Assembly (NCBI RefSeq): GCF_044704955.1
Contig: NC_092003.1
Coordinates: forward strand, 4,092,001-4,156,000
Reading direction: 5' to 3'
Length of the DNA stretch: 64,000 nucleotides
Source of the DNA: Pristiophorus japonicus
Taxonomy: Eukaryota
Position numbers and translations under genes: made by a program. Below, one piece after another: positions 490-62,977 of this stretch. The notes under the pieces were generated by a model. That model worked only from the letters and a program-made list of their open reading frames with translations. It was not told where the DNA came from and did not search any database. Every line of letters starts with the position of its first letter. Position 1 is the first letter of the stretch.

Positions 490-588
490 CTGAGGATTAA
501 TTTAAAATTACATATTTAGGACAATAGTGGGAATGAGTGAGGTAAATGAATCAGGATAGCCCGAGGGCCCCTTTAGATGGTACGGTAC

Positions 589-751
589 CTTCTTTTTATT
601 TTCAGGGAGGTCCTCCTCCATTGGCTCTGGTTTACTTTCCGTTTTGCTTCGAGGTGGGGGTGGAGACGGAATGTCCTCATCCTCAGTGCCTTGCAGATCA
701 ATTCCAAGCAAAACACTTAGAGTGGTCATAACTCTGGGATCTTGTAGTCTC
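589..751 (-). CDS. STIP1: STIP1 coding exon 5 (DP1 end and proline-rich linker)
   Basis: ctcag|G AGA...AAG|gtaccg; 163 nt; RLQDPRVMTTLSVLLGIDLQ...KPEPMEEDLPENKKK; phases join exons 4 and 6. Confidence 0.96.
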
Positions 752-1169
752 CTGAGAAAGCGAAGGACACCAGCTGCTAACTGCACAGTTAACAAACGCG
801 CACTTGGCTCCTCACTGGAAGAGGCAGCCACAGAACGACTGTCTACCGTCATGTATTCCGCAGGGTATTAAACATCTGAAATTCTTCAGGCTATTCCAGT
901 CATAACTTTGATACCATTCAAACTACGCTCACTTAAACAGTACCCATTTATTTGGAAGATTGGTCAAATGCACGTTTTAGTTAGAAAAATGTTAATATAA
1001 ATAGGATTCAATATTATAGGTCAGGTCTTCAGTTTTTAAACAACAAGCCTCGCATTACGATTACAGGTTTTTTTTTTTTAAATGGACCGCATTGAACTTA
1101 CATTTTCCATTCCGCTTAGAAAAGAGACAAGACACATACCTCCCTCAAACACCAGTTAAAAATTGGGAC

Positions 1170-1495
1170 TTAAGAACATAACAAAGGAGCAGGAGTAGGC
1201 CATTCGGCCCCTCGAGCCTGCTCCGCCACTCAATAAGATCGCGGCTGATCTTCTACCTCAATCCCACGATCCCCATATCCCTCGATTCCCTTAATATTCA
1301 AAAATCTATCACTCTCTGTCTTGAAGACTGAGCCTCCACAGCCCTCTGGGTTCGAGAATTCCAAAGATTCACCACCCTCCAAGAGAAGAAATTTCTCCAT
1401 CTCCGTCCTAAATGGCCGACCCCTTATTCTGAGACGGTGACCTCTGGTTCTCGACTCCACAGCCAGAGTAAACATCCTCCCTGCATCTACCCTGA
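1170..1495 (-). mobile_element. CR1 LINE 3' fragment
   Basis: ORF piece SRTRGHRLRIRGRPFRTEM and the CR1 3' UTR tail shared with the other CR1 copies in the window. Confidence 0.88.
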
Positions 1496-2048
1496 AAGAA
1501 TGTTACTTCCCCAATGGTTCAGCCATATATAATCCATAGTCTGTGCAGTGTTACCCAATTCAGCCTGGGCAGTGATATGGATGGGTTAGGAAAACAAAGA
1601 AGAGTTTCCCTTCCCAATTGCTAATGAACGATCCCTGATGGCAGTGCATGCGAATCGATGAACCCTCCCCTGTAAATCAATGGCTTGCCAACATGACTCC
1701 TTGGTGACACATGAAGCACTACCAGAGTACAACTAACATGTGGAATTGTACTGTTGAAAGTCAGCATCTTCAGGAGAGGGGCAACAGAGGATAGAGGATT
1801 GGTAAAGAAATTGAAACTTGCCACATTGGTGAAAAGGCATAAGCTGGGGATCATTTCATTCAAAATCCACTGAATTGAACTCACCACCAGATCTTGGATT
1901 GATATCCCAAAGCTATGGATTTATATCTAGAGTTGGAATTAGACATTAGCCAGTATTCTGGATGACGGAGATCAATCTTCGACCGAACTAACTAAACATT
2001 CTCCCGAATGATAATGGAATACCCCGAAGTGGAAGGGACTGCACGTAC

Positions 2049-2190
2049 GTGGCTAGGTCAGCTGGTTTGTTTTTTAACTGTTCAATCATTTCTTTGTAGC
2101 TCGGATCACTCAGCAGTGCCCTTGTCCTGGAGTCGCTCTCCAGCTTCTGGTACAGGTTGGGAGAAGCGAACGGGTTCATGAATTTCTTTT
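2049..2190 (-). CDS. STIP1: STIP1 coding exon 4 (DP1 domain)
   Basis: ttgcag|AA AAG AAA TTC ATG...GCC AC|gtacgt; 142 nt; (E)[46 protein letters not shown](T). Confidence 0.96.
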
Positions 2191-2354
2191 CTGCAAGGAA
2201 AGCAAATCAAATCATATTATTACCATGTCCAATAATAGAACTATTTGGCATTTACAGCATATTTTTGCAGTGAAAATAGGAACCATTCAGTAGTGTGAAT
2301 TAAGCAAAACAGCACTTTTGAAGAGTACAAAAACAAACTTTGAATAGTCTACAG

Positions 2355-2838
2355 ACGCACCAACGTTAGCGTCCTCCATCAGACCAACATCCCCAGCATC
2401 GAAGCACTGACCACACTCGACCAGCTCCACTGGGTGGGCCACATTGTTCGCACGTCTGACACAAGACTCTCAAAGCAAGCGCTCTACTCGGAACTCCTGC
2501 ATGGCAAGCAAGCCAAAGGTGGGCAGAGGAAACGTTACAGGGACACCCTCAAAGCCTCCCTGATAGAGTGCAACATCCTCACCGACACCTGGGAGTCCAT
2601 GGCCAAAGACCAGTCCACCTCAGTGGAGGAAGTGCATCCGGGAGGGTGCTGAGCACCTCTACACTTGTCGCCAAGAGCATGCAGAAATCAAGTGCAGGCA
2701 GCGGAAGAAGCGTGCGGTAAACCTCTCCCACCCTCCCCTTCCCTCAATGACTATCTGTCCCACCTGTGACAGGGACTGTGGTACCTGTATTGGAATGTTC
2801 CGTCACCTAAGAACTCATTTTTAGAGTGGAAACAAGTC
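2355..2838 (+). mobile_element. RTE-clade LINE 3' fragment; its tail resumes at ~4642-4672 after a CR1 insertion
   Basis: Translates WVGHIVRTSDTRLSKQALYSELLHGKQAKGGQRKRYRDTLKASL, then a CPTC zinc-finger remnant typical of RTE ORF C-termini; tail GTGGAAACAAGTC...TTCGATTTCAAGGGACTTCCTATGATGA matches the minus-strand copy at 14.2 kb. Confidence 0.75.
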
Positions 2839-4641
2839 TAGGTCCTCTGTAGGTTCCCTACAGTCAGAATCAGGGGAAGTCATAACGGGGAACAAAGAAA
2901 TGGCAGACCAATTGAACAAGTACTTTGGTTCGGTATTCACTAAGGAGGACACAAACAACCTTCCGGATATAAAAGGGGTCAGAGGGTCTAGTAAGAAGGA
3001 GGAACTGAGAGAAATCTTTGTTAGTCGGGAAATTGTGTTGGGGAAATTGATGGGATTGAAGGCCGATAAATCCCCAGGGCCTGATGGACTGCATCCCAGA
3101 GGACTTAAGGAGGTGGCCTTGGAAATAGCGGAAATGCATTGACAGTCATTTTCCAACATTCCATAGACTCTGGATCAGTTCCTATGGAGTGGAGGGTAGC
3201 CAATGTAACCCCACTTTTTAAAAAAGGAGGGAGAGAGAAAGCAGGGAATTATAGACCGGTCAGCCTGACATCGGTAGTGGGTAAAATGATGGAATCAATT
3301 ATTAAGGATGTCATAGCAGCGCATTTGGACAGAGGTGACATGATAGGTCCAAGTCAGCATGGATTTGTGAAAGGAAAATCATGCTTGACAAATCTTCTGG
3401 AATTTTTTGAGGATGTTTCCAGTAGAGTGGACAAGGGAGAACCAGTTGATGTGGTATATTTGGACTTTCAGAAGGCTTTCGACAAGGTCCCACACAAGAG
3501 ATTAATGTGCAAAGTTAAAGCACATGGAATTGGGGGTAGTGAGCTGACGTGGATTGAGAACTGGTTGGCAGACAGGAAGCAAAGAGTAGGAGTAAATGGG
3601 GACTTTTCAGAATGGCAGGCAGTGACTAGTGGGGCATCGCAAGGTTCTGTGCTGGGGCCCCAGCTGTTTACATTGTACATTAATGATTTAGACGAGGGGA
3701 TTAAATGTAGTATCTCCAAATTTGCGGATGACACTAAGTTGGGTGGCAGTGTGAGCTGCGCGGAGGATGCTATGAGGCTGCAGAGTGACTTGGATAGGTT
3801 AGATGAGTCGGCAAATGCATGGCAGATGAAGTATAATGTGGATGAATGCGAGGTTCTCCACTTTGGTGGTAAAAACAGAGACAGATTATTATCTGAATGG
3901 TGACAGATTAGGAAAAGGGGAGGTACAACGAGACCTGGGTGTCATGGTACATCAGTCATTGAAGGTTGGCATGCAGGTACAGCAGGCGATTAAGAAAGCA
4001 AATGGCATGTTGGCCTTCATAGCGAGGGGATTTGAGTACAGGGACAGGGAGGTGTTACTACAGTTGTACAAGGCCTTGATGAGGCCACACCTGGAGTATT
4101 GCGTACAGTTTTGGTCTCCTAATTTGAGGAAGGACATTCTTGCTATTGAGAGAGTGCAGCGAAGGTTCACCAGACTGATTCCCGGGATGGCAGGACTGAC
4201 ATATCAAGAAAGACTGGATCAACTGGGCTTGTATTCACTGGAGTTCAGAAGAATGAGAGGGGATCTCATAGAAACATTTAAAATTCTGACAGATTTAGAC
4301 AGGTTAGATGCAGGAAGAATGTTCCCAATATTGGGGAAGCCCAGAACCAGGGGTCACAGTCTAAGGATAAGGGGTAAGCCATTTAGGACCGAGATGAGGA
4401 GAAACTTCTTTACCCAGAGAGTGGTGAACCTGTGGAATTCTCTACCACAGAAAGTTGAGGCCAATTCACGAAATATATTCAAAAAGGAGTTAGATGTAGA
4501 CCTTACTACTAGGGGGATCAAGGGGTATGGCGAGAAAGCAGGAATGGGGAACTGAAGTTAGATGTTCAGCCATGAACTCAGTGAATGGCGGTGCAGGCTC
4601 GAAGGGCCGAATGGCCTACACCCGCACCTATTTTCTATGTT
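2839..4641 (+). mobile_element. CR1 LINE, 5'-truncated, frameshifted ORF2 (RT)
   Basis: RT motifs YLDFQKAFDKV, QGSVLGP, FADD across ORFs 2900-4555; CR1 3' tail ending ctattttctatgttt. Confidence 0.96.
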
Positions 4642-5198
4642 TTCTTCGATTTCAAGGGACTTCCTATGATGAATTATAAATCGAGAGACTGCATCATCAG
4701 GAATGGATTGTAACTCGCAACATAGCAGGTTTCTCTCTTCGCCGTCGAGGCAGCAATGAGCTGGAGTGGATCGCTCGCCTGCTTTTCATTCCATTTATTA
4801 CGATGGAATGAAAATCAGGTGCTTCTGTAAAAAGTCTTCCCTGCCAGGGTACTACCCAAACATTGAAGGCAAAAAAAATCTCCCCAGTTCGGTCTAAACA
4901 CCTTAAAAAGCTCTTCATATAACGAAATGCTCCAGTCTGTTGCAAATCCCCTTTTGAGATGGTCGGCCGACTCCCAGGCACTCGAGAGCAACTTGGATTT
5001 TCTTTGCTCGCCAAGCCAAGACTAGCACTGCAGAAATTGCACATGCAAATCTTGTCCTGCTGGGCAGTGCAGCAGCCCTTCACCCCACTTGCTCGGTTGT
5101 TACAATATTTTACTCTGAACCGGAAGGAATCCAATAGAAAGACAAACTGCCAACTCCACCAGACAGACACCGAGAAGCTTCGAAAGCTGGCTTCTTAC

Positions 5199-5340
5199 CT
5201 GCGAGCCTAGCATCCACGTTCTGCATTCCATCCTTCAGCTGCTGGTTTCCGGGTTCGTGTTTTAGTCCCTCCTCGTACGTTTTCTTTGCCTCCTCAAAGC
5301 GATTTAGGAACTCCAAGGCTGCAGCCTTCCTGGAGTAACC
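5199..5340 (-). CDS. STIP1: STIP1 coding exon 3 (TPR1 end)
   Basis: ctttag|GGT TAC TCC...GCA G|gtaaga; 142 nt; [47 protein letters not shown]. Confidence 0.97.
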
Positions 5341-5669
5341 CTAAAGGTGGCACAATTATTAAAACAAATAGTTTCAGGCAGAAGGACTAGAATGCAAGCT
5401 ATAAAGTTAGTGTACAAGTTCAAGGTAATTTGGGTCTTTGCAGAAGAGCTTGTTGATCTTTCAACTGCTCCATCCACTTTTGTCGTTCATGGTTTCAAAA
5501 TGAAGACTGGAGAATCAGGAACCCAGTGGCACAACGTGGTGATTTACAAACACCCAACACAATACTCAGGTAGAAGCTAAAAGTGAAAAGGAGCACAAAT
5601 AGAAAGATTGTTTTTTAAAAACAAGTTTAAAAATTGGGGGTGGGGTAGGAAAGAATTTTTCGTTATACA

Positions 5670-5975
5670 AGGCATTTATGCCCTCAGTACAGCCCTAAAG
5701 AAGCAACACACAATGAACTGCTTTTGAAACAAAGTCACTTTAAATAAAAAGCATACACAGCAACCATTTTCTTTTCACAGAGCAAGGTTTCATAAGTAGC
5801 AATGAGATAAATGCAAGTGTTGGTTGGTGGATGAATGTTGGCCAGGACAATGGAAGAACGGCCTGATTTTCTACCAAAAAGTGCCACAGAATATTTTACA
5901 TTCATCTGGAAAGGCAGCTAGGGCTCATCATCTCATCTGAAATACAGCAGCTCCAACAATGTACCGTTCCTTCAG
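5670..5975 (-). mobile_element. Old, diverged Deu-domain SINE (SacSINE1/AmnSINE1-like)
   Basis: Degenerate match to the Deu core (gttggccaggaca...gtgcca...tctcatctgaaa...agcagctccaaca) seen intact in younger copies at 55.7, 61.4 and 63.2 kb. Confidence 0.6.
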
Positions 5976-6079
5976 TAACCTCGGCTGATATTCCATGGCA
6001 GTGGTGCTCAATCCTGGAGCGAGACTACCACCAGCCAAGCTGATATCTTTATTGTCAACTGTCCATTGTGAACTTTGCT

Positions 6080-6310
6080 CAGTTAGTAGCATGTTCACCA
6101 GAGTTAGAAGTTGTGGGTTCAAGCCCCAATTTAGGTTAAACGCATCAGTGAAGCGCTAACCAAGTGCTGCACTATCAGAGAACATCTCCTTCGATCGAGA
6201 CGTTAACGGTTTGCCTGATCTGGTGGGCCAGGAAAATTTCAAAGACCCGACGGCATTATTTAAGAGGATCTTGGAGTTCCAGTGTCCAGCTGGCAATCCT
6301 CCCTCAACCA
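6080..6310 (+). mobile_element. Old Deu-domain SINE 5' part
   Basis: B-box-like gggttcaagcccc, then gtgctgcactatcaga...gagacgttaac...aaagacccgacggcattattt resembling the Deu core. Confidence 0.55.
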
Positions 6311-6489
6311 ACCAAAGGCATCAAAAACAGAATCGGCTTGCATTCATGGAGCACCTGATCAGATCTCTCAAACATTTTCCAAAGTGCGACAGGTACAACA
6401 AATTACCCGGGAGGTGCACGGACTTATGTAGGCAACCGCGACAACCATTTTGTGCAGAGGTTAAACGCTTTTCCCGAGGGGTAGCCTAC

Positions 6490-6699
6490 CTTGCCCCAGT
6501 CTGGTTTAATTTCAACAGTTTTGCAGCCATCCTCATAGGCTTTCTGATACTCTGACTTTTTGGCATAGGCAGCAGACCGGTTGCTGTACAGTACATGGTT
6601 CTTGGGGTCCAGCTTAATGGCTTCACTGTAACAGATGATGGCATCATCTATCTTCCTGGCACTCAGGGCTTGATTGCCCTTCTCCTTCAGTTCATTCAC
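6490..6699 (-). CDS. STIP1: STIP1 coding exon 2 (TPR1)
   Basis: ctcttag|GTG AAT GAA...GGC AAG|gtaggc; 210 nt; [70 protein letters not shown]. Confidence 0.98.
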
Positions 6700-45941: not shown

Positions 45942-46239
45942 ATGTGGTTCCGAATCGAGCGGGCGGCGGCGAAGGCGAAGCTGGTGTGTCGCGGCGGGCG
46001 GCAGTTGGCCGTTTCGAACGCCGGCGCATCCCAACCGCCGCCGCCGCTGCACGCGCGCCCATCACGTGCCCCTCCCGCCGCGCGACCGCGGCTGTCCGCC
46101 GGCTTCCCGCCTCCTGCACCTGTCGCCGCTCGTCACTCGCTGCCGGCCAGCGCAGCGGTCGGTCGCCTCCTCTCCATGTCCGCCGCCGCCATGAGCGGCT
46201 GCCAGCTGGGCTCCGCCGCCGACTGGAGAGTGGCTAAAA
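45942..46239 (+). CDS. MACROD1: MACROD1 (ADP-ribose glycohydrolase) coding exon 1
   Basis: 298 nt in a CpG island ending AAA A|gtaagt; Arg/Ala-rich, acid-poor N-terminus resembling a mitochondrial presequence; ends AMSGCQLGSAADWRVAK versus recalled human AMAAKVDLSTSTDWKEAK; divergent neighbour of STIP1 as in human. Confidence 0.82.
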
Positions 46240-51968: not shown

Positions 51969-52070
51969 AGCATCTGGAGGAAATTGATAGAACAGAAAGG
52001 CGAATGTACTACAAAGCCGAAAGGTTTGTTATGCTGGATGAGATTCAAACATGGAAAGACTTGGCTGAAG
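51969..52070 (+). CDS. MACROD1: MACROD1 coding exon 2
   Basis: T-rich tract, aag|AG CAT...GAA G|gtgagt; 102 nt, phase 1-1; (K)HLEEIDRTERRMYYKAERFVMLDEIQTWKDLAE aligns without gaps to recalled human SFLKGLSDKQREEHYFCKDFVRLKKIPTWKEMAK. Confidence 0.85.
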
Positions 52071-55020: not shown

Positions 55021-55694
55021 GATGCGTTTGGTATCAGGGAAGAAATATGATTAAATTATTTAAAAACATCAACGATATCAGTTCTGGCAGCTGATTCAGA
55101 AATGAGTGCCAATTCTCTCTCATACATATTATAGACACGAGAAACCGTTGAATAATAAATGTATTTAATAATCAATACCAAAGGTGGTAGCAATATTTGA
55201 CACCAAAATGTATCAGACAAGACTCTACCAGGGCTTGAAAACTGCCGAGCCAGTAACTGACAAAATTCAGTGCTTTATATATTCTTTCTCAACAACCTAG
55301 CCCGTCAATATCCAAAACACTGTACTTACTTCATGTTAACTGTGCAGTAGCTCGAGGCACTTTGTAAAGATTGTATTTTTCAGCATGTGGGAATGATACA
55401 TAAAGACCATAGGTCCTATAGGACCATAGGAAATTACCAATCCCTGGCACACGTTGACTGCCTTGAGCTAATATTACACAGCTTGCATTGATTTCAAGTT
55501 GTTTCAGCTTTTCATTGACTCAAAATGTCGTGCAATTGAGATGTGAAGTCACTCACCCGAAGCTGATTTGGGAAAGTGGTCCAGGAGGTAGTTGCACATT
55601 GCGTTGGCTTCACACCAGCCACAGTATAACTGCAATTGGCATTAAGAAAGAAATACAAAAATCTAGGCTGACACTCCAGTGCAATGCGAAGGGA

Positions 55695-56280
55695 GCGCCT
55701 TTCACGACCACCGGACGTCGCAAAGTGCTTTACAGCCAATGAAGTACTTTTGGAGTGTAGTCACTGTTGTAATGTAGGAAACGCGGCAGCCAATTTGCGA
55801 ACAGCAAGCTCCAACAAGCAGGAATGTGATAATGACCCAGATAATTTATTTTTGTTATGATGCTTGAGGGATAAATATTGGCCAGGATGCCCACCTGAGA
55901 GAACAGACGGAGCTTCGGTTTAACGTCTCATCTGAAAGACTGCCCCTCCGACAGTGCATTGCTCCCTCAATACCGCCCCTCCGACAGTGCATTGCTCCCT
56001 CAATACCGCCCCACCGACAGTGCGGCGCTCCCTCAATACCGCCCCTCCGACAGTGCGGCGCTCCCTCAGTACTGCCCCTCCGACAGTGCGGCGCTCCCTC
56101 AGTACTGCCCCTCCGACAGTGCGGCGCTCCCTCAGTACCGCCCCTCTCCACCGCACTGGAGTGTCAGCCTAGATTTTTGTGCCCGCCTAGATTTTTGTGC
56201 CCAAGTCCCTGGAGTGGAACTTGAACCCACAACCTTCTGACTCAGAGGCGAGAGTGCTGCTCACTGAGCCGTGGCTGACA
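55695..56280 (-). mobile_element. Near-complete Deu-domain SINE with ~6 internal 33-bp repeats
   Basis: tRNA-like head (A box GGCTCAGTGAG, B box GGTTCAAGTTCC), Deu core and L2-like tail. Confidence 0.9.
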
Positions 56281-56337
56281 CTATTATGTAAATTAAGTAA
56301 AGTTTAAAAAACTTTCCAGGTGGTTTGACTTTTCAAA

Positions 56338-56890
56338 CTTTTGAAATGCTGACGAGAGATGGCTTTGCTTGCTCCTCATCAGTGCAGGGAGGATCCTGTC
56401 TCAAACTGGTACAAGCAATAAAACCATGTCACCACAGTCATTGCTCCATTACCAAATGCGGTCACCTCACTCTGGGAGATCTGTTAATTTTAAGTCCACT
56501 TTATAAGTTGGCAGCATTATGGAATCGTGCGGAGGATAAACGCCAAAACGGACTGGTTGAACCGAACGGCCCTTTTCTGTTACAATTTCTACGTAATATA
56601 TAGCCACATTTTCTGGAATTATAATGGTGGTTCAGAGCTTTTACTTAACTAAAAGTGGCCTGTTAGAAATTAAATCCACTTTAATTTCTTTATATGCTAA
56701 TCTACTTTAATTTCTGTTTGCCACTCCATTTATTTCTGCTCCAATTAGAAAAAAGAAACACATCTCGTTATTTTACACGTAGAAAAATTAATCTTTCGGT
56801 TTGTGTAAAAAAAGTAAAGGTTGAAAATTAATGTTGGAGTTCAGAAGGATGAGGAGCAAGCAAAGCCATCTCTCGTCAGCATTTCAAAAG
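56338..56890. repeat. Perfect 43-bp inverted repeat (56338-56380 and 56848-56890)
   Basis: cttttgaaatgctgacgagagatggctttgcttgctcctcatc and its exact reverse complement, 467 bp apart. Confidence 0.97.
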
Positions 56891-59800
56891 AGGGAAACAA
56901 AAAGGAGGCAAAAACAAAAGACAGAAAGGAGATGAGGAAAAGTGGAGGGCAGAGAAACCCAAGGCAAAGAACAAAAAGGGCCATTGTACAGCAAAATTCT
57001 AAAAGGACAGAGGGTGTTAAAAAAACAAGCCTAAAGGCTTTGTGTCTTAATGCAAGGAGTATCCGCAATAAGGTGGATGAATTAACTGTGCAAATAGATG
57101 TTAACAAATATGATGTGATTGGGATTACGGAGACGTGGCTCCAGGATGAGCAGGGCTGGGAACTCAACATCCAGGGGTATTCAACATTCAGGAAGGAAAG
57201 AATAAAAGGAAAAGGAGGTGGGGTAGCATTGCTGGTTAAGGAGGAGATTAAGGCAATAGTTAGGAAGGACATTAGCTTGGATGATGTGGAATCTATATGG
57301 GTAGAGCTGCAGAACACCAAAGGGCAAAAAACGTTAGTGGGAGTTGTGTACAGACCTCCAAACAGTAGTAGTGATGTTGGGGAGGGCATCAAACAGGAAA
57401 TTAGGGGTGCGTGCAATAAAGGTGCAGCAGTTATAATGGGTGACTTTAATATGCACATAGATTGGGCTAACCAAACTGGAAGCAATACGGTGGAGGAGGA
57501 TTTTCTGGAGTGCATAAGGGATGGTTTTTTAGACCAATATGTCGAGGAACCAACTAGGGGGGAGGCCATCTTAGACTGGGTGTTATGTAATGAGAAAGGA
57601 TTAATTAGCAATCTCGTTGTGCGAGGCCCCTTGGGGAAGAGTGACCATAATATGGTGGAATTCTGCATTAGGATGGAGAATGAAACAGTTAATTCAGAGA
57701 CCATGGTCCAGAACTTAAAGAAGGCTAACTTTGAAGGTATGAGGCGTGAATTGGCTGAGATGGATTGGCGAATGATACTTAAGGGGTTGACTGTGGATGG
57801 GCAATGGCAGACATTTAGAGACCGCATGGATGAACTACAACAATTGTACATTCCTGTCTGGCATAGAAATAAAAAAGGGAAGGTGGCTCAACCGTGGCTA
57901 TCAAGGGAAATCAGGGATAGTATTAAAGCCAAGGAAATGGCATACAAATTGGCCAGAAATAGCAGCGAACCTGGGGACTGGGAGAAATTTAGAACTCAGC
58001 AGAGGAGGACAAAGGGTTTGATTAGGGCAGGGAAAATGGAGTATGAGAAGAAGCTTGCAGGGAACATTAAGACGGATTGCAAAAGTTTCTATAGATATGT
58101 AAAGAGAAAAAGGTTAGTAAAGACAAATGTAGGTCCCCTGCAGTCAGAATCAGGGGAAGTCATAACGGGGAACAAAGAAATGGCGGACCAATTGAACAAG
58201 TACTTTGGTTCGGTATTCACGAAGGAGGACACGAACAACCTTCCGGTTATAAAAGGGGTCGGGGGGTCTAGTAAGGAGGAGGAACTGAGGGAAATCCTTA
58301 TTAGCCGGGAAATTGTGTTGGGGAAATTGATGGGATTGAAGGCCGATAAATCCCCAGGGCCTGATGGACTGCATCCCAGAGTACTTAAGGAGGTGGCCTT
58401 GGAAATAGTGGATGCGTTGACAGTCATTTTCCAACATTCCATTGACTCTGGATCAGTTCCTATGGAGTGGAGGGTAGCCAATGTAACCCCACTTTTTAAA
58501 AAAGGAGGGAGAGAGAAAACAGGGAATTATAGACCGGTCAGCCTGACATCGGTAGTGGGTAAAATGATGGAATCAATTATGAAGGATGTCACAGCAGTGC
58601 ATTTGGAAAGAGGTGACATGATAGGTCCAAGTCAGCATGGATTTGTGAAAGGGAAATCATGCTTGACAAATCTTCTGGAATTTTTTGAGGATGTTTCCAG
58701 TAGAGTGGATAAGGGAGAACCAGTTGATGTGGTATATTTGGACTTTCAGAAGGCGTTCGACAAGGTCCCACACAAGAGATTAATGGGCAAAGTTAGAGCA
58801 CATGGGATTGGGGGTAGTGTACTGACATGGATTGAGAACTGGTTGTCAGACAGGAAGCAAAGAGTAGGAGTAAATGGGTACTTTTCAGAATGGCAGGCAG
58901 TGACTAGTGGGGTACCGCAAGGTTCTGTGCTGGGGCCCCAGCTGTTTACACTGTACATTAATGATTTAGATGAGGGGATTAAATGTAGTATCTCCAAATT
59001 TGCGGATGACACTAAGTTGGGTGGCAGTGTGAGCTGCGAGGAGGATGCTGTGAGGCTGCAGAGCGACTTGGATAGGTTAGGTGAGTGGGCAAATGCATGG
59101 CAGATGAAGTATAATGTGGATAAATGTGAGGTTATCCACTTTGGTGGTAAAAACAGAGAGACAGACTATTATCTGAATGGTGACAGATTAGGAAAAGGGG
59201 AGGTGCAAAGAGACCTGGGTGTCATGGTACATCAGTCATTGAAGGTTGGCATGCAGGTGCAGCAGGCGGTTAAGAAAGCAAATGGCATGTTGGCCTTCAT
59301 AGCAAGGGGATTTGAGTACAGGGGCAGGGAGGTGTTGCTACAGTTGTACAGGGCATTGGTGAGGCCACACCTGGAGTATTGTGTACAGTTTTGGTCTCCT
59401 AACCTGAGGAAGGACATTCTTGCTATTGAGGGAGTGCAGCGAAGGTTCACCAGACTGATTCCCGGGATGGCGGGACTGACCTATCAAGAAAGACTGGATC
59501 AACTGGGCTTGTATTCACTGGAGTTCAGAAGAATGAGAGGGGACCTCATAGAAACATAAAATTCTGACGGGGTTAGACAGGTTAGATGCAGGAAGAATGT
59601 TCCCAATGTTGGGGAAGTCCAGAACCAGGGGTCACAGTCTAAGGATAAGGGGTAAGCCATTTCGGACCGAGATGCGGAGGAACTTCTTCACCCAGAGAGT
59701 GGTGAACCTGTGGAATTCTCTACCACAGAAAGTTGTTGAGGCCAATTCACTAAATATATTCAAAAAGGAGTTAGATGAGGTCCTTACTGCTAGGGGGATC

Positions 59801-59942
59801 AAGGGGTATGGCGAGAAAGCAGGAATGGGGTACTGAAGTTGAATGTTCAGCCATGAACTCATTGAATGGCGGTGCAGGCTAGAAGGGCCGAATGGCCTAC
59901 TCCTGCACCTATTTTCTATGTTTCTATGTTTCTATGTTTCTA
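56891..59942 (+). mobile_element. Young CR1 LINE, ORF2 nearly intact, lacking ORF1
   Basis: Open APE plus RT frame to 59559; a 2-nt deletion relative to sibling copies (gaaacataaaa vs gaaacatttaaaa) truncates the C-terminus; tail (ctatgttt)3. Confidence 0.97.
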
Positions 59943-60034
59943 TTATACAGTGGTTCCAAAGTACTGTCATTCTGTTCAACAAAACAATGAGTAATGCCCA
60001 TGGAACCTGTTGGAGATCAGAATCTCCCTGGAGT

Positions 60035-60598
60035 TTAAGGATGTTTCCTGTGTTTGAGAGAGAACAGTTTTTTAATCATGGTCTGTTCACGACCAGCTCT
60101 CGCACTCGACTCACTGGTTTCCAGGATAGGAGATTTGTTTGCGGTGATTAATCCGCTTTTGTAACACTCCAGCTCCTCTTGTGCAACCAGCAGCTGAGCC
60201 TTCAACTTGTTGCGTTCTTGCAACACATCCCTCAGTTCCTGGAGCGTGAAACGGGGGCGATCTGGGTCATTGACATCGACTGCAAGTTTGTCCGGCCCCG
60301 CGCTTTGCTGCAGCTGCGAATCACTTTCCGCCTGTCGAAGCCTTTCCGTTTCGACTCGCAGGCTGTCCCGTTCAATTCTCAGCGTCTCCACCGTCAGGTT
60401 GTGCTTGTTCACTAGAGCCTCGAACATTTCCAGCACCCGGATGATTTTGTACTGCAGCTCTGACACGATGTGGCAGCCGTCCGGGCCGCTGAGCTTCATC
60501 AAGTCCCGGCCGATGATGTAAGATATATCATAGACGTCTTCAGCCGCCAGCTCGAATGGATCTTTGTCAAACGCTGATGTCGGGTTGAGTTCCTCCAT
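60035..60598 (-). CDS. RILPL2: RILP-like protein 2-like, intronless 187-aa ORF nested antisense in MACROD1 intron 2
   Basis: RH1 (PFELAAEDVYDISYIIGRDL...IIRVLEMFEALV) and RH2 (DPDRPRFTLQELRDVLQERNKLKAQLLVAQEEL) domains plus C-terminal TMIKKLF, matching recalled RILPL2; no stop or frameshift. Confidence 0.92.
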   Translation of the reverse strand: MEELNPTSAFDKDPFELAAEDVYDISYIIGRDLMKLSGPDGCHIVSELQYKIIRVLEMFEALVNKHNLTVETLRIERDSLRVETERLRQAESDSQLQQSAGPDKLAVDVNDPDRPRFTLQELRDVLQERNKLKAQLLVAQEELECYKSGLITANKSPILETSESSARAGREQTMIKKLFSLKHRKHP

Positions 60599-60672
60599 TG
60601 ACTTGACTCACCGGCCGGGCCAATCTGCCTCCTTGCTCTCCTGCTAGAACTGAAACTGAAAAAGACTTGCAT

Positions 60673-61397
60673 AAGAATATAAGAAATAGGAGCAGGAGTA
60701 GGCCATACGGGCCCTCGAGCCTGGTCCGCCATTCAATAAGATCATGGCTGATCTGATCATGGACTCAGCTCCACTTCCCTGCCCGTTCCCCAAAACCCCA
60801 TATCGGTTAAGAAACTGTCAATCTGTGTCTTAAATTTATTCAATGTCTCAGCTTCCACAGCTCTCTGAGGCAGCGAATTCCACAGATTTACAACCCTCCG
60901 AGAGAAGAAATTCCTTCTCAGCTCAGTTTTAAATGGGCGGCCCCTTATTCTAAGATTATGCCCCCTAGTTCTAGTCTCCCCCATCAGTGGAAACATCCTC
61001 TCTGCATCCACCTTGTCAAGCCCCCTCATAATCTTATATGTTTCGATAAGATCACCTCTCATTCAGTGAGTTTAGGCCCAACCTACTCAACCTTTCCTCA
61101 TAAGTCAACCCCCTCATCCCCGGAATCAACCGAGTGAACCTTCTCTGAACTGCCTCCAAAGCAAGTATATCCTTTCGTAAATATGGAAACCAAAACTGCA
61201 TGCAGTATTCCAGATGTGGTCTCACCAATATCCTGTATAACTGTAGCAAGACTTTCCTGCTTTTATACTCCATCCCCTTTGCAATAAAGGCCAAGGTACC
61301 ATTGGCCTTCCTGATCACTTGCTGTACTTGCATACTATCCTTTTGTGTTTCATGCACAAGTACCCCCAGGTCCCGCTGCACTGCGCCACTTTGCAAT
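60673..61397 (-). mobile_element. CR1 3' fragment inserted into the tail of a Deu SINE
   Basis: ORF2 C-terminal fragments; duplication cttgcat at 60666-60672 and 61398-61404. Confidence 0.92.
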
Positions 61398-62432
61398 CTT
61401 GCATTTATATAGAGCCTTTTACAACCACTGGAAGTCCTTTACAGCCAATGAAGTACTTTTGAAGTGTAGTTACTGTAGACACGCGGCACCCAATTTACGC
61501 ACAGCAAGCTCCCACAAACAGCAATGTGATAATGACCCAGATAATCTGTTTTTTTGTTGTGTTGGAGGGATAAATATTGGCCCAGGACACCCGGGAAGAA
61601 TTCCCCTACTCTTCTTCGAAATAATGCCATGGGATCTTTTATGTCCACCTGAGAAACCGAGGCCCCGTCTGCACTAACGTCTCATCCGAAAGACGGCACC
61701 TCCGACAGTGCGGCGCTCCCTCAACACTGCCCCTCCGACAGTGCGGCGCTCCCTCAGCACTGCCCCTCCGACAGTACGGCGCTCTCTCAGCACTGCCCCT
61801 CCGACAGTGCGGCGCTCCCTCAGCACTGCCCCTCCGACAGTGCGGCGCTCCCTCAGCACTGCCCCTCCGACAGTGCGGCGCTCCCACAGCACTGCCCCTC
61901 CGACAGTGCGGCGCTCCCTCAGCACTGCCCCTCCGACAGTGCGGCGCTCCCTCAGCACTGCCCCTCCGACAGTGCGGCGCTCCCTCAGCACTGCCCCTCC
62001 GACAGTGCGGCGCTCCCTCAGCACTGCCCCTCCGACAGTGCGGCGCTCCCTCAGCACTGCCCCTCCGACAGTGCGGCGCTCCCTCAGCACTGCCCCTCCG
62101 ACAGTGCGGCGCTCCCTCAGCACTGCCCCTCCGACAGTGCGGCGCTCCTACAGCACTGCCCCTCCGACAGTGCGGCGCTCCCTCAGCACTGCCCCTCCGA
62201 CAGTGCGGCGCTCCCTCAGCACTGCCCCTCCGACAGTGCGGCGCTCCTTCAGCACTGCCCCTCCGACTGTGCGGCGCTCCTTCAGCACTGCCCCTCCGAC
62301 AGTGCGGCGCTCCCTCAGCACTGCACGAGAGTGTTAGCTTAGATTTATGTGCTCAAGTTTCCAGAGTGAGATTTGAACCCACGGCCTTCTGACTCCGAGG
62401 CGAAAGTGCTGCCCACTGAGCCACGGCTGACA
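61398..62432 (-). mobile_element. Full-length Deu-domain SINE with ~19 internal 33-bp repeats
   Basis: Head TGTCAGCCGTGGCTCAGTGGG...GGTTCAAATCTC, array at 61696-62325, Deu core, tail ending TATATAAATGCAAG. Confidence 0.92.
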
Positions 62433-62568
62433 CAACTCAAAATTAAACCAGCTGATCACTCAAGATAAATAATCACTGTTTTACAAATGGCATGCTTAAG
62501 AAAAGCTTCACTTCTTTCACCCCCTCAAATAATAAACCGACAAAATGGGTAGCTTCATATTTGATTAC

Positions 62569-62720
62569 CTGCTTCAGCAGAATGACCGTTCTCCTCACTT
62601 CCTTTATGCACAGCCAGGTTTTCACATGACAGGAAGTAGGAGGGTTGTTTTGATTGACATGTTGTTTTCAACCAATCCAATGCTTTATTTGGCAATTCCT
62701 AGTTGCTGAGCAACACGAGC
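62569..62720 (-). promoter_or_regulatory. Candidate promoter and untranslated first exon of the RILPL2-like gene
   Basis: Donor CAG|gtaatc at 62569/62568; ETS cores (cacttcc 62596, aggaagt 62631), TCACATGA at 62622, CCAAT at ~62672, X-box-like GTTGCTGAGCAAC at 62702-62714; unique sequence. Confidence 0.45.
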
Positions 62721-62977
62721 AGAGAAATAGGATTTGTTCCTGCTTTTTTTTCCTCCAGAAGAACTTATCTGCTTTCGTTTAAAGTGTGAAAACTCCTAGA
62801 ATCAACATTTTTCACCCGCTTTCTTCATAGTTTTTCTATTTTCATTTTCTTTTCATGAATTATTCTCCCCTCCGCTCTGATGGCGCTGACTTATGTTGGG
62901 GTACAGTTTCAAGAGTGCCAACTGGATGCTAGCATCTCAACCCAGTGCCCTTGGCAGTGAGTCCTGATGGGCTGTTT

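Follow-up and report, generated by a model that had tools for sequence, protein, structure and literature searches.

The initial annotation of this DNA described an intact, intronless RILPL2-like gene nested antisense inside MACROD1, and proposed that it was a retroposed copy retained under selection. The locus raises the question of whether a second RILPL2 gene, derived from a processed message, works beside its parent or in place of it. The window, by which we mean the whole 64,000-nucleotide stretch analysed, is C29:4092001-4156000 of the 5.9-Gb genome of the sawshark Pristiophorus japonicus (genome label G000); a UniRef protein labelled with this species name agrees at 100% with three exons of the genome. 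The coding sequence in question, here called the copy, occupies window positions 60035..60598 on the minus strand and runs from ATG to stop in an unbroken frame of 187 aa, with no coding introns. The protein has an RH1 domain (Pfam PF09744, E 4.9e-13, residues 21-80), a RILP/RH2 domain (Pfam PF11461, E 3.9e-21, residues 118-178), and a C-terminus carrying TMIKKLF. RILPL2 proteins are recognized by RH1 and RH2 joined by a short linker in about 190-210 aa; the copy has this organization, and its top PDB matches are RILPL2 chains (4KP3, 6RIR, 7LWB). The open frame and the Pfam and PDB matches bear out the first description of a complete 187-aa frame with RH1, RH2 and IKKLF and no stop or frameshift. 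The word intronless holds for the coding sequence and not for the gene, which has an intron in its 5'UTR.

Plus-strand MACROD1-type exons lie on both sides of the copy. MACROD1 exon 1 is at 45942..46239 (plus strand, 298 coding nt, GTAAGT donor; a contig of sequencing run X9 matches up to 46239 and continues with another 750 nt of different sequence), and exon 2 is at 51969..52070 (plus strand, 102 nt). Intron 2 extends from there past the window end to exon 3, which was found 6 kb beyond the window at C29:4162154-4162270 (plus strand, 117 nt). The phases of the three exons are compatible, and a Macro-domain exon lies 510 kb further along, at C29:4672145. The gene names MACROD1 and STIP1 are our assignments, and we take the host exon sizes to equal those of human MACROD1. 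The copy, its first exon and its inferred 3'UTR are entirely within MACROD1 intron 2, so that MACROD1 does span this position, and the nested antisense arrangement first described stands. Also as first described, MACROD1 hosts antisense FLRT1, whose coding exon (C29:4199864-4201810, minus strand) lies between exon 3 and the Macro-domain exon. FLRT1 resembles the copy in host, in antisense orientation and in having a single coding exon, but it sits past exon 3 and occurs throughout the jawed vertebrates, whereas the copy sits in intron 2, starts from a first exon of its own and has been found only in cartilaginous fishes. A first exon shared with FLRT1 was considered and is unneeded, as the copy's own first exon lies 1.9 kb upstream. 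At the other end of the window, exons of a STIP1-like gene (511-6699, minus strand) are arranged head-to-head with MACROD1, and between the starts of the two genes is a 21-kb satellite (16323-37736) of about 572 copies of a 37-bp unit.

Transcript structure was studied with contigs from 11 sequencing runs, none of which is on record as RNA; we take them to be RNA because contigs break at splice sites. Over 20 kb, only contig pieces were used; repeats swamped placement and depth was unusable. Runs X1 and X5 represent organisms A and B (about 87% identical), and the contigs of organism C (X9 and X11) match the window almost exactly. On the minus strand, the coding exon includes 57 nt of 5'UTR at 60599..60655, beginning at a pyrimidine-tract/CAG acceptor (60656-60658). 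The X1 and X5 contigs agree up to this CAG and then diverge, X5 carrying on with the pyrimidine tract. A 24-nt loose end of the X1 contig matches in 19 of 24 letters at 62569, beside a GT donor; this is the sole match at ≤5 mismatches in 164 kb, and the stretch 62445-62960 is essentially single copy. X1 was therefore spliced across a 5'UTR intron (60656..62568, minus strand, GT-AG, 1913 nt, mostly repeats), joining a non-coding first exon at 62569..62631 (minus strand) whose upstream limit is approximate, being set by a 69-nt loose end of the X1 contig. In organism C, an X11 contig match ends at 60658 and an X9 contig match at the MACROD1 exon 1 donor. The spliced 5'UTR junction in X1, together with the breaks of X9 and X11 contigs at splice sites, argues that the copy is transcribed.

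The inferred 3'UTR (55150..60034, minus strand) is about 4.9 kb long here, with ATTAAA at 55164-55169. It contains a 3.1-kb LINE (56830..59941, plus strand) with an 875-aa endonuclease-reverse transcriptase frame, of a class that we take to be CR1. An X1 contig joins 59942-60648 to 56306-56829 and 55192-55646, and an X5 contig is joined in the same way with 56311-56829 and 55300-55646. Single contigs of both organisms thus skip the LINE, which is absent there, and a shorter repeat between the downstream unique stretches. Organism C contigs span both LINE junctions by 25-47 nt, and the mRNA of this species may carry the LINE. An X9 contig of organism C ends at 55188, near the ATTAAA signal, and the common 3' end across contigs is a weak hint of transcript structure. 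The decayed repeats amid which the gene was first said to lie are to be read in this light: the LINE beside the stop codon is likely inside the gene's own 3'UTR.

A palindromic RFX-type X-box (62702..62714), a predicted promoter element, lies some 70-80 nt upstream of the first exon. With what we take to be the X-box consensus, it was the only match in the window, against 0.02 expected and a result of 2 in 100 shuffles; no X-box was found within 3.2 kb upstream of the parent gene described below. RFX factors control ciliary genes. The X-box suggests that the copy is likely RFX-driven and ciliary, and RILPL2 has a role in ciliary membrane content according to PMC3571868. A literature search for a link between RILPL2 and RFX gave none among the matches listed.

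A search of the same genome with the copy gave six matches: the copy itself, four on C8 (two exons each of RILPL2 and RILPL1), and a single RILP exon on C16. The multi-exon RILPL2 whose existence the initial annotation had left to be checked is the C8 gene, which is intact, lies beside RILPL1 and is split into four exons by introns that follow nt 309, 461 and 554. Its third intron has a GC donor and its fourth exon is small (C8:240945233-240946994); in database protein P0016 this intron is translated instead of being spliced out. At each of the three aligned parent intron positions the copy's sequence runs on unbroken, an intron-free state seen directly in this genome only. Two of these positions carry introns in related genes, phase-2 ones at the second and third in RILPL1 and one at the second in RILP, so the introns are ancestral and the copy's lack of them is derived. 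Identity between copy and parent is 57.8% in amino acids and 63.6% in nucleotides, with pN 0.25 and pS 0.75, and GC3 is 0.62 for the copy versus 0.41 for the parent. The near-identity expected of a young pseudogene does not hold at this distance (58% aa, 64% nt), and dN/dS between the two was not computable, the synonymous sites being saturated (pS 0.753).

The surroundings of the two genes are also different. CDK2AP and PITPNM matches lie near the parent on C8, a neighbourhood that is presumably that of human 12q24. Neither parent flanks nor any parent neighbour was found at the copy's locus, making MACROD1 an unrelated insertion site. DNA comparison of the copy's promoter and 3'UTR with the parent locus gave short or repeat matches only and nothing informative; a promoter shared with the parent was ruled out, the matches being short chance ones. 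The positional orthologue of RILPL2 would be a multi-exon gene beside RILPL1, and that gene is the separate C8 locus; the window gene is a paralogue of C8 RILPL2, not its positional orthologue. A block paralogous to the parent's neighbourhood, with PITPNM, CDK2AP and RAD9 family matches, is on an unplaced scaffold (C1328:54795-395606). The own-genome search matched no RILPL gene in this block, evidence against a copy that stayed where genome duplication had put it; a search for ANKRD13 gave no match on C29 or C1328 and is uninformative on this point. Elsewhere, on the minus strand of C4 (265396190-265396942), a whole phosphatidylinositol-transfer domain occupies one 355-aa open frame, where other family members match exon by exon, and this frame is probably another intron-free copy.

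Copy-type proteins were found in 22 other cartilaginous fishes, chimaera included (62-81% identity among those listed), and the frame is open in all 23 species. Public databases annotate these orthologues as RILP-like protein 2, the name of the chimaera entries in three records, and do not mark them as a separate paralogue. In 21 of the 22 other species, the copy and FLRT1 are on a contig of equal size, the exception being the whale-shark copy, which is on a 5.9-kb contig. Further, copy and FLRT1 accessions are within 10 numbers of each other in 14 of the 17 species with both accessions. Shared contig size is a weak test of synteny on large contigs and a strong one on small contigs, as in chimaera (0.70 Mb, with consecutive accessions), little skate (1.7 Mb) and Mustelus (3.1 Mb). 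Synteny across sharks, rays and chimaera is supported to this extent, and the copy is not the novelty of one lineage that it had been supposed to be: it is common to all three groups, and older. An out-of-X origin found no support, a shark sex-chromosome paper giving no match to RILPL, FLRT1 or MACROD1.

Differences to organisms A and B came to 38 among the 40 rows listed of 81. Third codon positions account for 23 of the 38 listed differences (p 5e-4), and for 7 of 8 in the RH2 core. The open frame in 23 species, this third-position excess, and pN of 0.25 against pS of 0.75 to the parent all argue that the frame is under purifying selection. Selected residues agree in part with those of known RILPL2. 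The residues with which RILPL2 binds phospho-Rab include, according to PMC7139218, R130, R132, F133 and K149 of the X-cap, and R139. Equivalents of the first four are present in 23/23 copy-type proteins, and that of R139 is retained in 17, with T in another five. The myosin-Va pocket includes F56 and V59 in mouse numbering (PMC9284427). At these positions all 23 copy-type proteins have Y and I, all three parent-type proteins have F and L, and, among 191 bony-vertebrate RILPL2 proteins, 186 have F at 56 and 184 have V at 59. The Y and I substitutions are conservative, and neither is the proline of dynein-binding RILP and RILPL1; myosin binding by the copy may differ. The C-terminal motif is present in 23/23 copy-type and 167/191 bony-vertebrate proteins and in none of five parent-type isoforms. 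Many of the bony-vertebrate misses are isoforms ending at the splice point, and among the literature matches listed, no role for the motif was found.

How old the copy is depends on the trees. The unrooted tree, built on 43 rows, has a branch (100/97) that sets all 16 copy-type rows, the chimaera's among them, apart from the rest. In the rooted tree, which had eight outgroup rows and left out RILP-like row P0478, all 23 RILPL2 rows form one clade (100/100) apart from RILPL1 and RILP. Its root lies within the copy clade, where the chimaera row branches first (80/71), and the shark parent groups with bony vertebrates (91/95), leaving the copy outside. Such a topology would be expected if the retrogene arose earlier, on the jawed-vertebrate stem, possibly from a lost genome-duplication paralogue, and bony vertebrates then lost it; the PITPNM/CDK2AP/RAD9 block on C1328, with no RILPL gene, would fit as well. 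We regard this earlier origin as a serious but rather doubtful alternative. The outgroup branch is long, at 1.5 changes per column, and a clade uniting parent and copy could not be rejected (p-AU 0.31); the rooted tree breaks up the copy clade although the chimaera gene is syntenic; and among the retrieved bony-vertebrate proteins, none grouped with the copy at high score. On these data the copy appears to go back at least as far as the cartilaginous fishes, and perhaps further; PMC12318234 dates the chimaera-elasmobranch split to about 400 million years ago.

The initial annotation had the copy either extra to or replacing its parent. Here it is additional: copy and parent are both intact, and the parent is also in X1, X5 and X9 contigs, so the parent was not replaced in this species. 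The picture in relatives is different. A parent-type query gave parent-type proteins for three of the 23 species (this one, Heterodontus francisci and Heptranchias perlo) in the best 120 of 706 matches, and all five parent-type proteins among 377 classified came from these three. The search covered protein databases at lengths of 106-338 aa, so that shorter or unannotated parents could be missed. For the other 20 copy carriers there was no parent-type protein within the same scope (protein databases, best 120 of 706 matches). On the species tree that we assumed for counting losses, absence of the parent from these 20 species points to at least three independent losses, in chimaera, in rays and in other galeomorph sharks. 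The term orphan retrogene, which requires that the parent be absent from the same genome, does not apply here, given the intact four-exon parent, and probably does apply in most relatives.

On another reading nothing was replaced, and the multi-exon parent persists in most cartilaginous fishes, unannotated, truncated or missed, with the work divided between two genes. This is consistent with the presence of both genes, intact and in the same runs, for this species and organisms A and B, with the differences between copy and parent at fixed RH1 pocket residues, and with a parent search resting on the best 120 of 706 matches. But a full-length parent would rank at the top, at near 79-83% identity, and none did for 20 of 23 species, most of which have NCBI annotations that yielded both the copy and FLRT1. 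We think division of labor throughout the group possible, if unlikely. A DNA-level duplicate, whether segmental or a genome-duplication paralogue, that moved into MACROD1 and later lost three introns seems improbable. The age of the copy may approach that of the vertebrate genome duplications, and C1328, being unplaced, could share a chromosome with C29; this route nevertheless demands that three introns be lost exactly and that the gene move into an unrelated intron, with no parent neighbour brought along and with a promoter and 3'UTR showing no informative similarity to the parent. As for a young or dead processed pseudogene, an idea suggested by an intron-free coding sequence in a repeat-rich intron, conservation refutes it almost beyond doubt, given a frame open in 23/23 species at 58% identity to the parent with pS 0.75, the third-position excess, a 5'UTR that is spliced, and the name RILP-like protein 2 on the chimaera entries.

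We are left, with good confidence, with an intact and conserved RILPL2 paralogue in MACROD1 intron 2, free of coding introns, that would have come from spliced RILPL2 mRNA before the chimaera-elasmobranch split, is predicted to be a phospho-Rab/myosin-V adaptor, and likely took over its parent's role. With three introns lost, an unrelated locus, an open frame and transcription, the copy qualifies as a functional retrogene, and the initial proposal of a retroposed copy retained under selection gains support from the intron loss, the third-position excess and the orthologues in 22 species. After so long a time a poly(A) remnant or target-site duplication would not be expected to survive, and neither was noticed on reading the sequence. 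The following course of events is envisaged. A spliced RILPL2 mRNA would have been reverse-transcribed and inserted in MACROD1 intron 2 some 400 million years ago, and the copy would then have gained its own promoter with the X-box, a non-coding first exon and a 5'UTR intron. Transcribed from that promoter antisense to MACROD1, it would yield a protein that dimerises, binds phosphorylated Rab8/Rab10 via the RH2 X-cap, and couples them through RH1 to myosin V. The copy would in time have assumed the role of the parent, a gene still present, though its C-terminal motif has decayed, in this genome and in Heterodontus and Heptranchias. We also favor, somewhat less firmly, the fuller account in which a retrogene at least as old as the cartilaginous fishes gained an RFX-type ciliary promoter in MACROD1 and displaced its parent at least three times independently (in chimaera, rays and most galeomorph sharks), while a parent with a decaying C-terminus is retained in sawshark, horn shark and sevengill shark, so that the replacement would be visible at several stages; the RILPL2 of most sharks and rays in the databases would then be the retrogene, with a lineage-wide change in the myosin pocket.

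The copy is like vertebrate RILPL2 in domain order and size, in X-cap residues R130/R132/F133/K149 and in its IKKLF-type C-terminal motif. It is unlike vertebrate RILPL2 in lacking coding introns, in lying in MACROD1 intron 2 rather than beside RILPL1, in having its own promoter and 5'UTR intron, and in the fixed Y and I at the F56/V59 positions. Long-retained retrogenes have mostly been described in mammals. Orphan retrogenes are defined as retrogenes that replaced their parents (PMC3548309; PMC4772013). As described there, these resemble the copy in being processed copies under purifying selection, with new regulatory elements and a parent missing in many lineages. The copy differs from those cases in that replacement is incomplete across the clade, the parent surviving in 3/23 species and presumably lost at least three times, and in being a cartilaginous-fish case of about 400 million years with an X-box in its promoter. 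According to PMC13320880, retrocopies outside mammals, birds and turtles are for the most part confined to single species; three of its supplements gave no RILPL2 or RILP match, and its full retrocopy tables or shark genome supplements could list the locus. A literature search for RILPL2 with shark or cartilaginous fish found no paper, and among the matches listed for retrogenes or retrocopies in chondrichthyans, elasmobranchs or sharks, none was on this gene by title or abstract start.

In sum, the copy is likely a very old functional retrogene, the product of a known kind of event whose uncommon feature is the likely repeated loss of the parent. With two-gene and apparently copy-only species both alive, expression and protein function could be compared before and after parent loss. 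The finding also exposes hidden paralogy, in that the RILPL2 entries of most sharks and rays would be the copy, a point to be heeded when orthology sets are built and when the LRRK2-Rab-RILPL ciliary pathway is compared between species.
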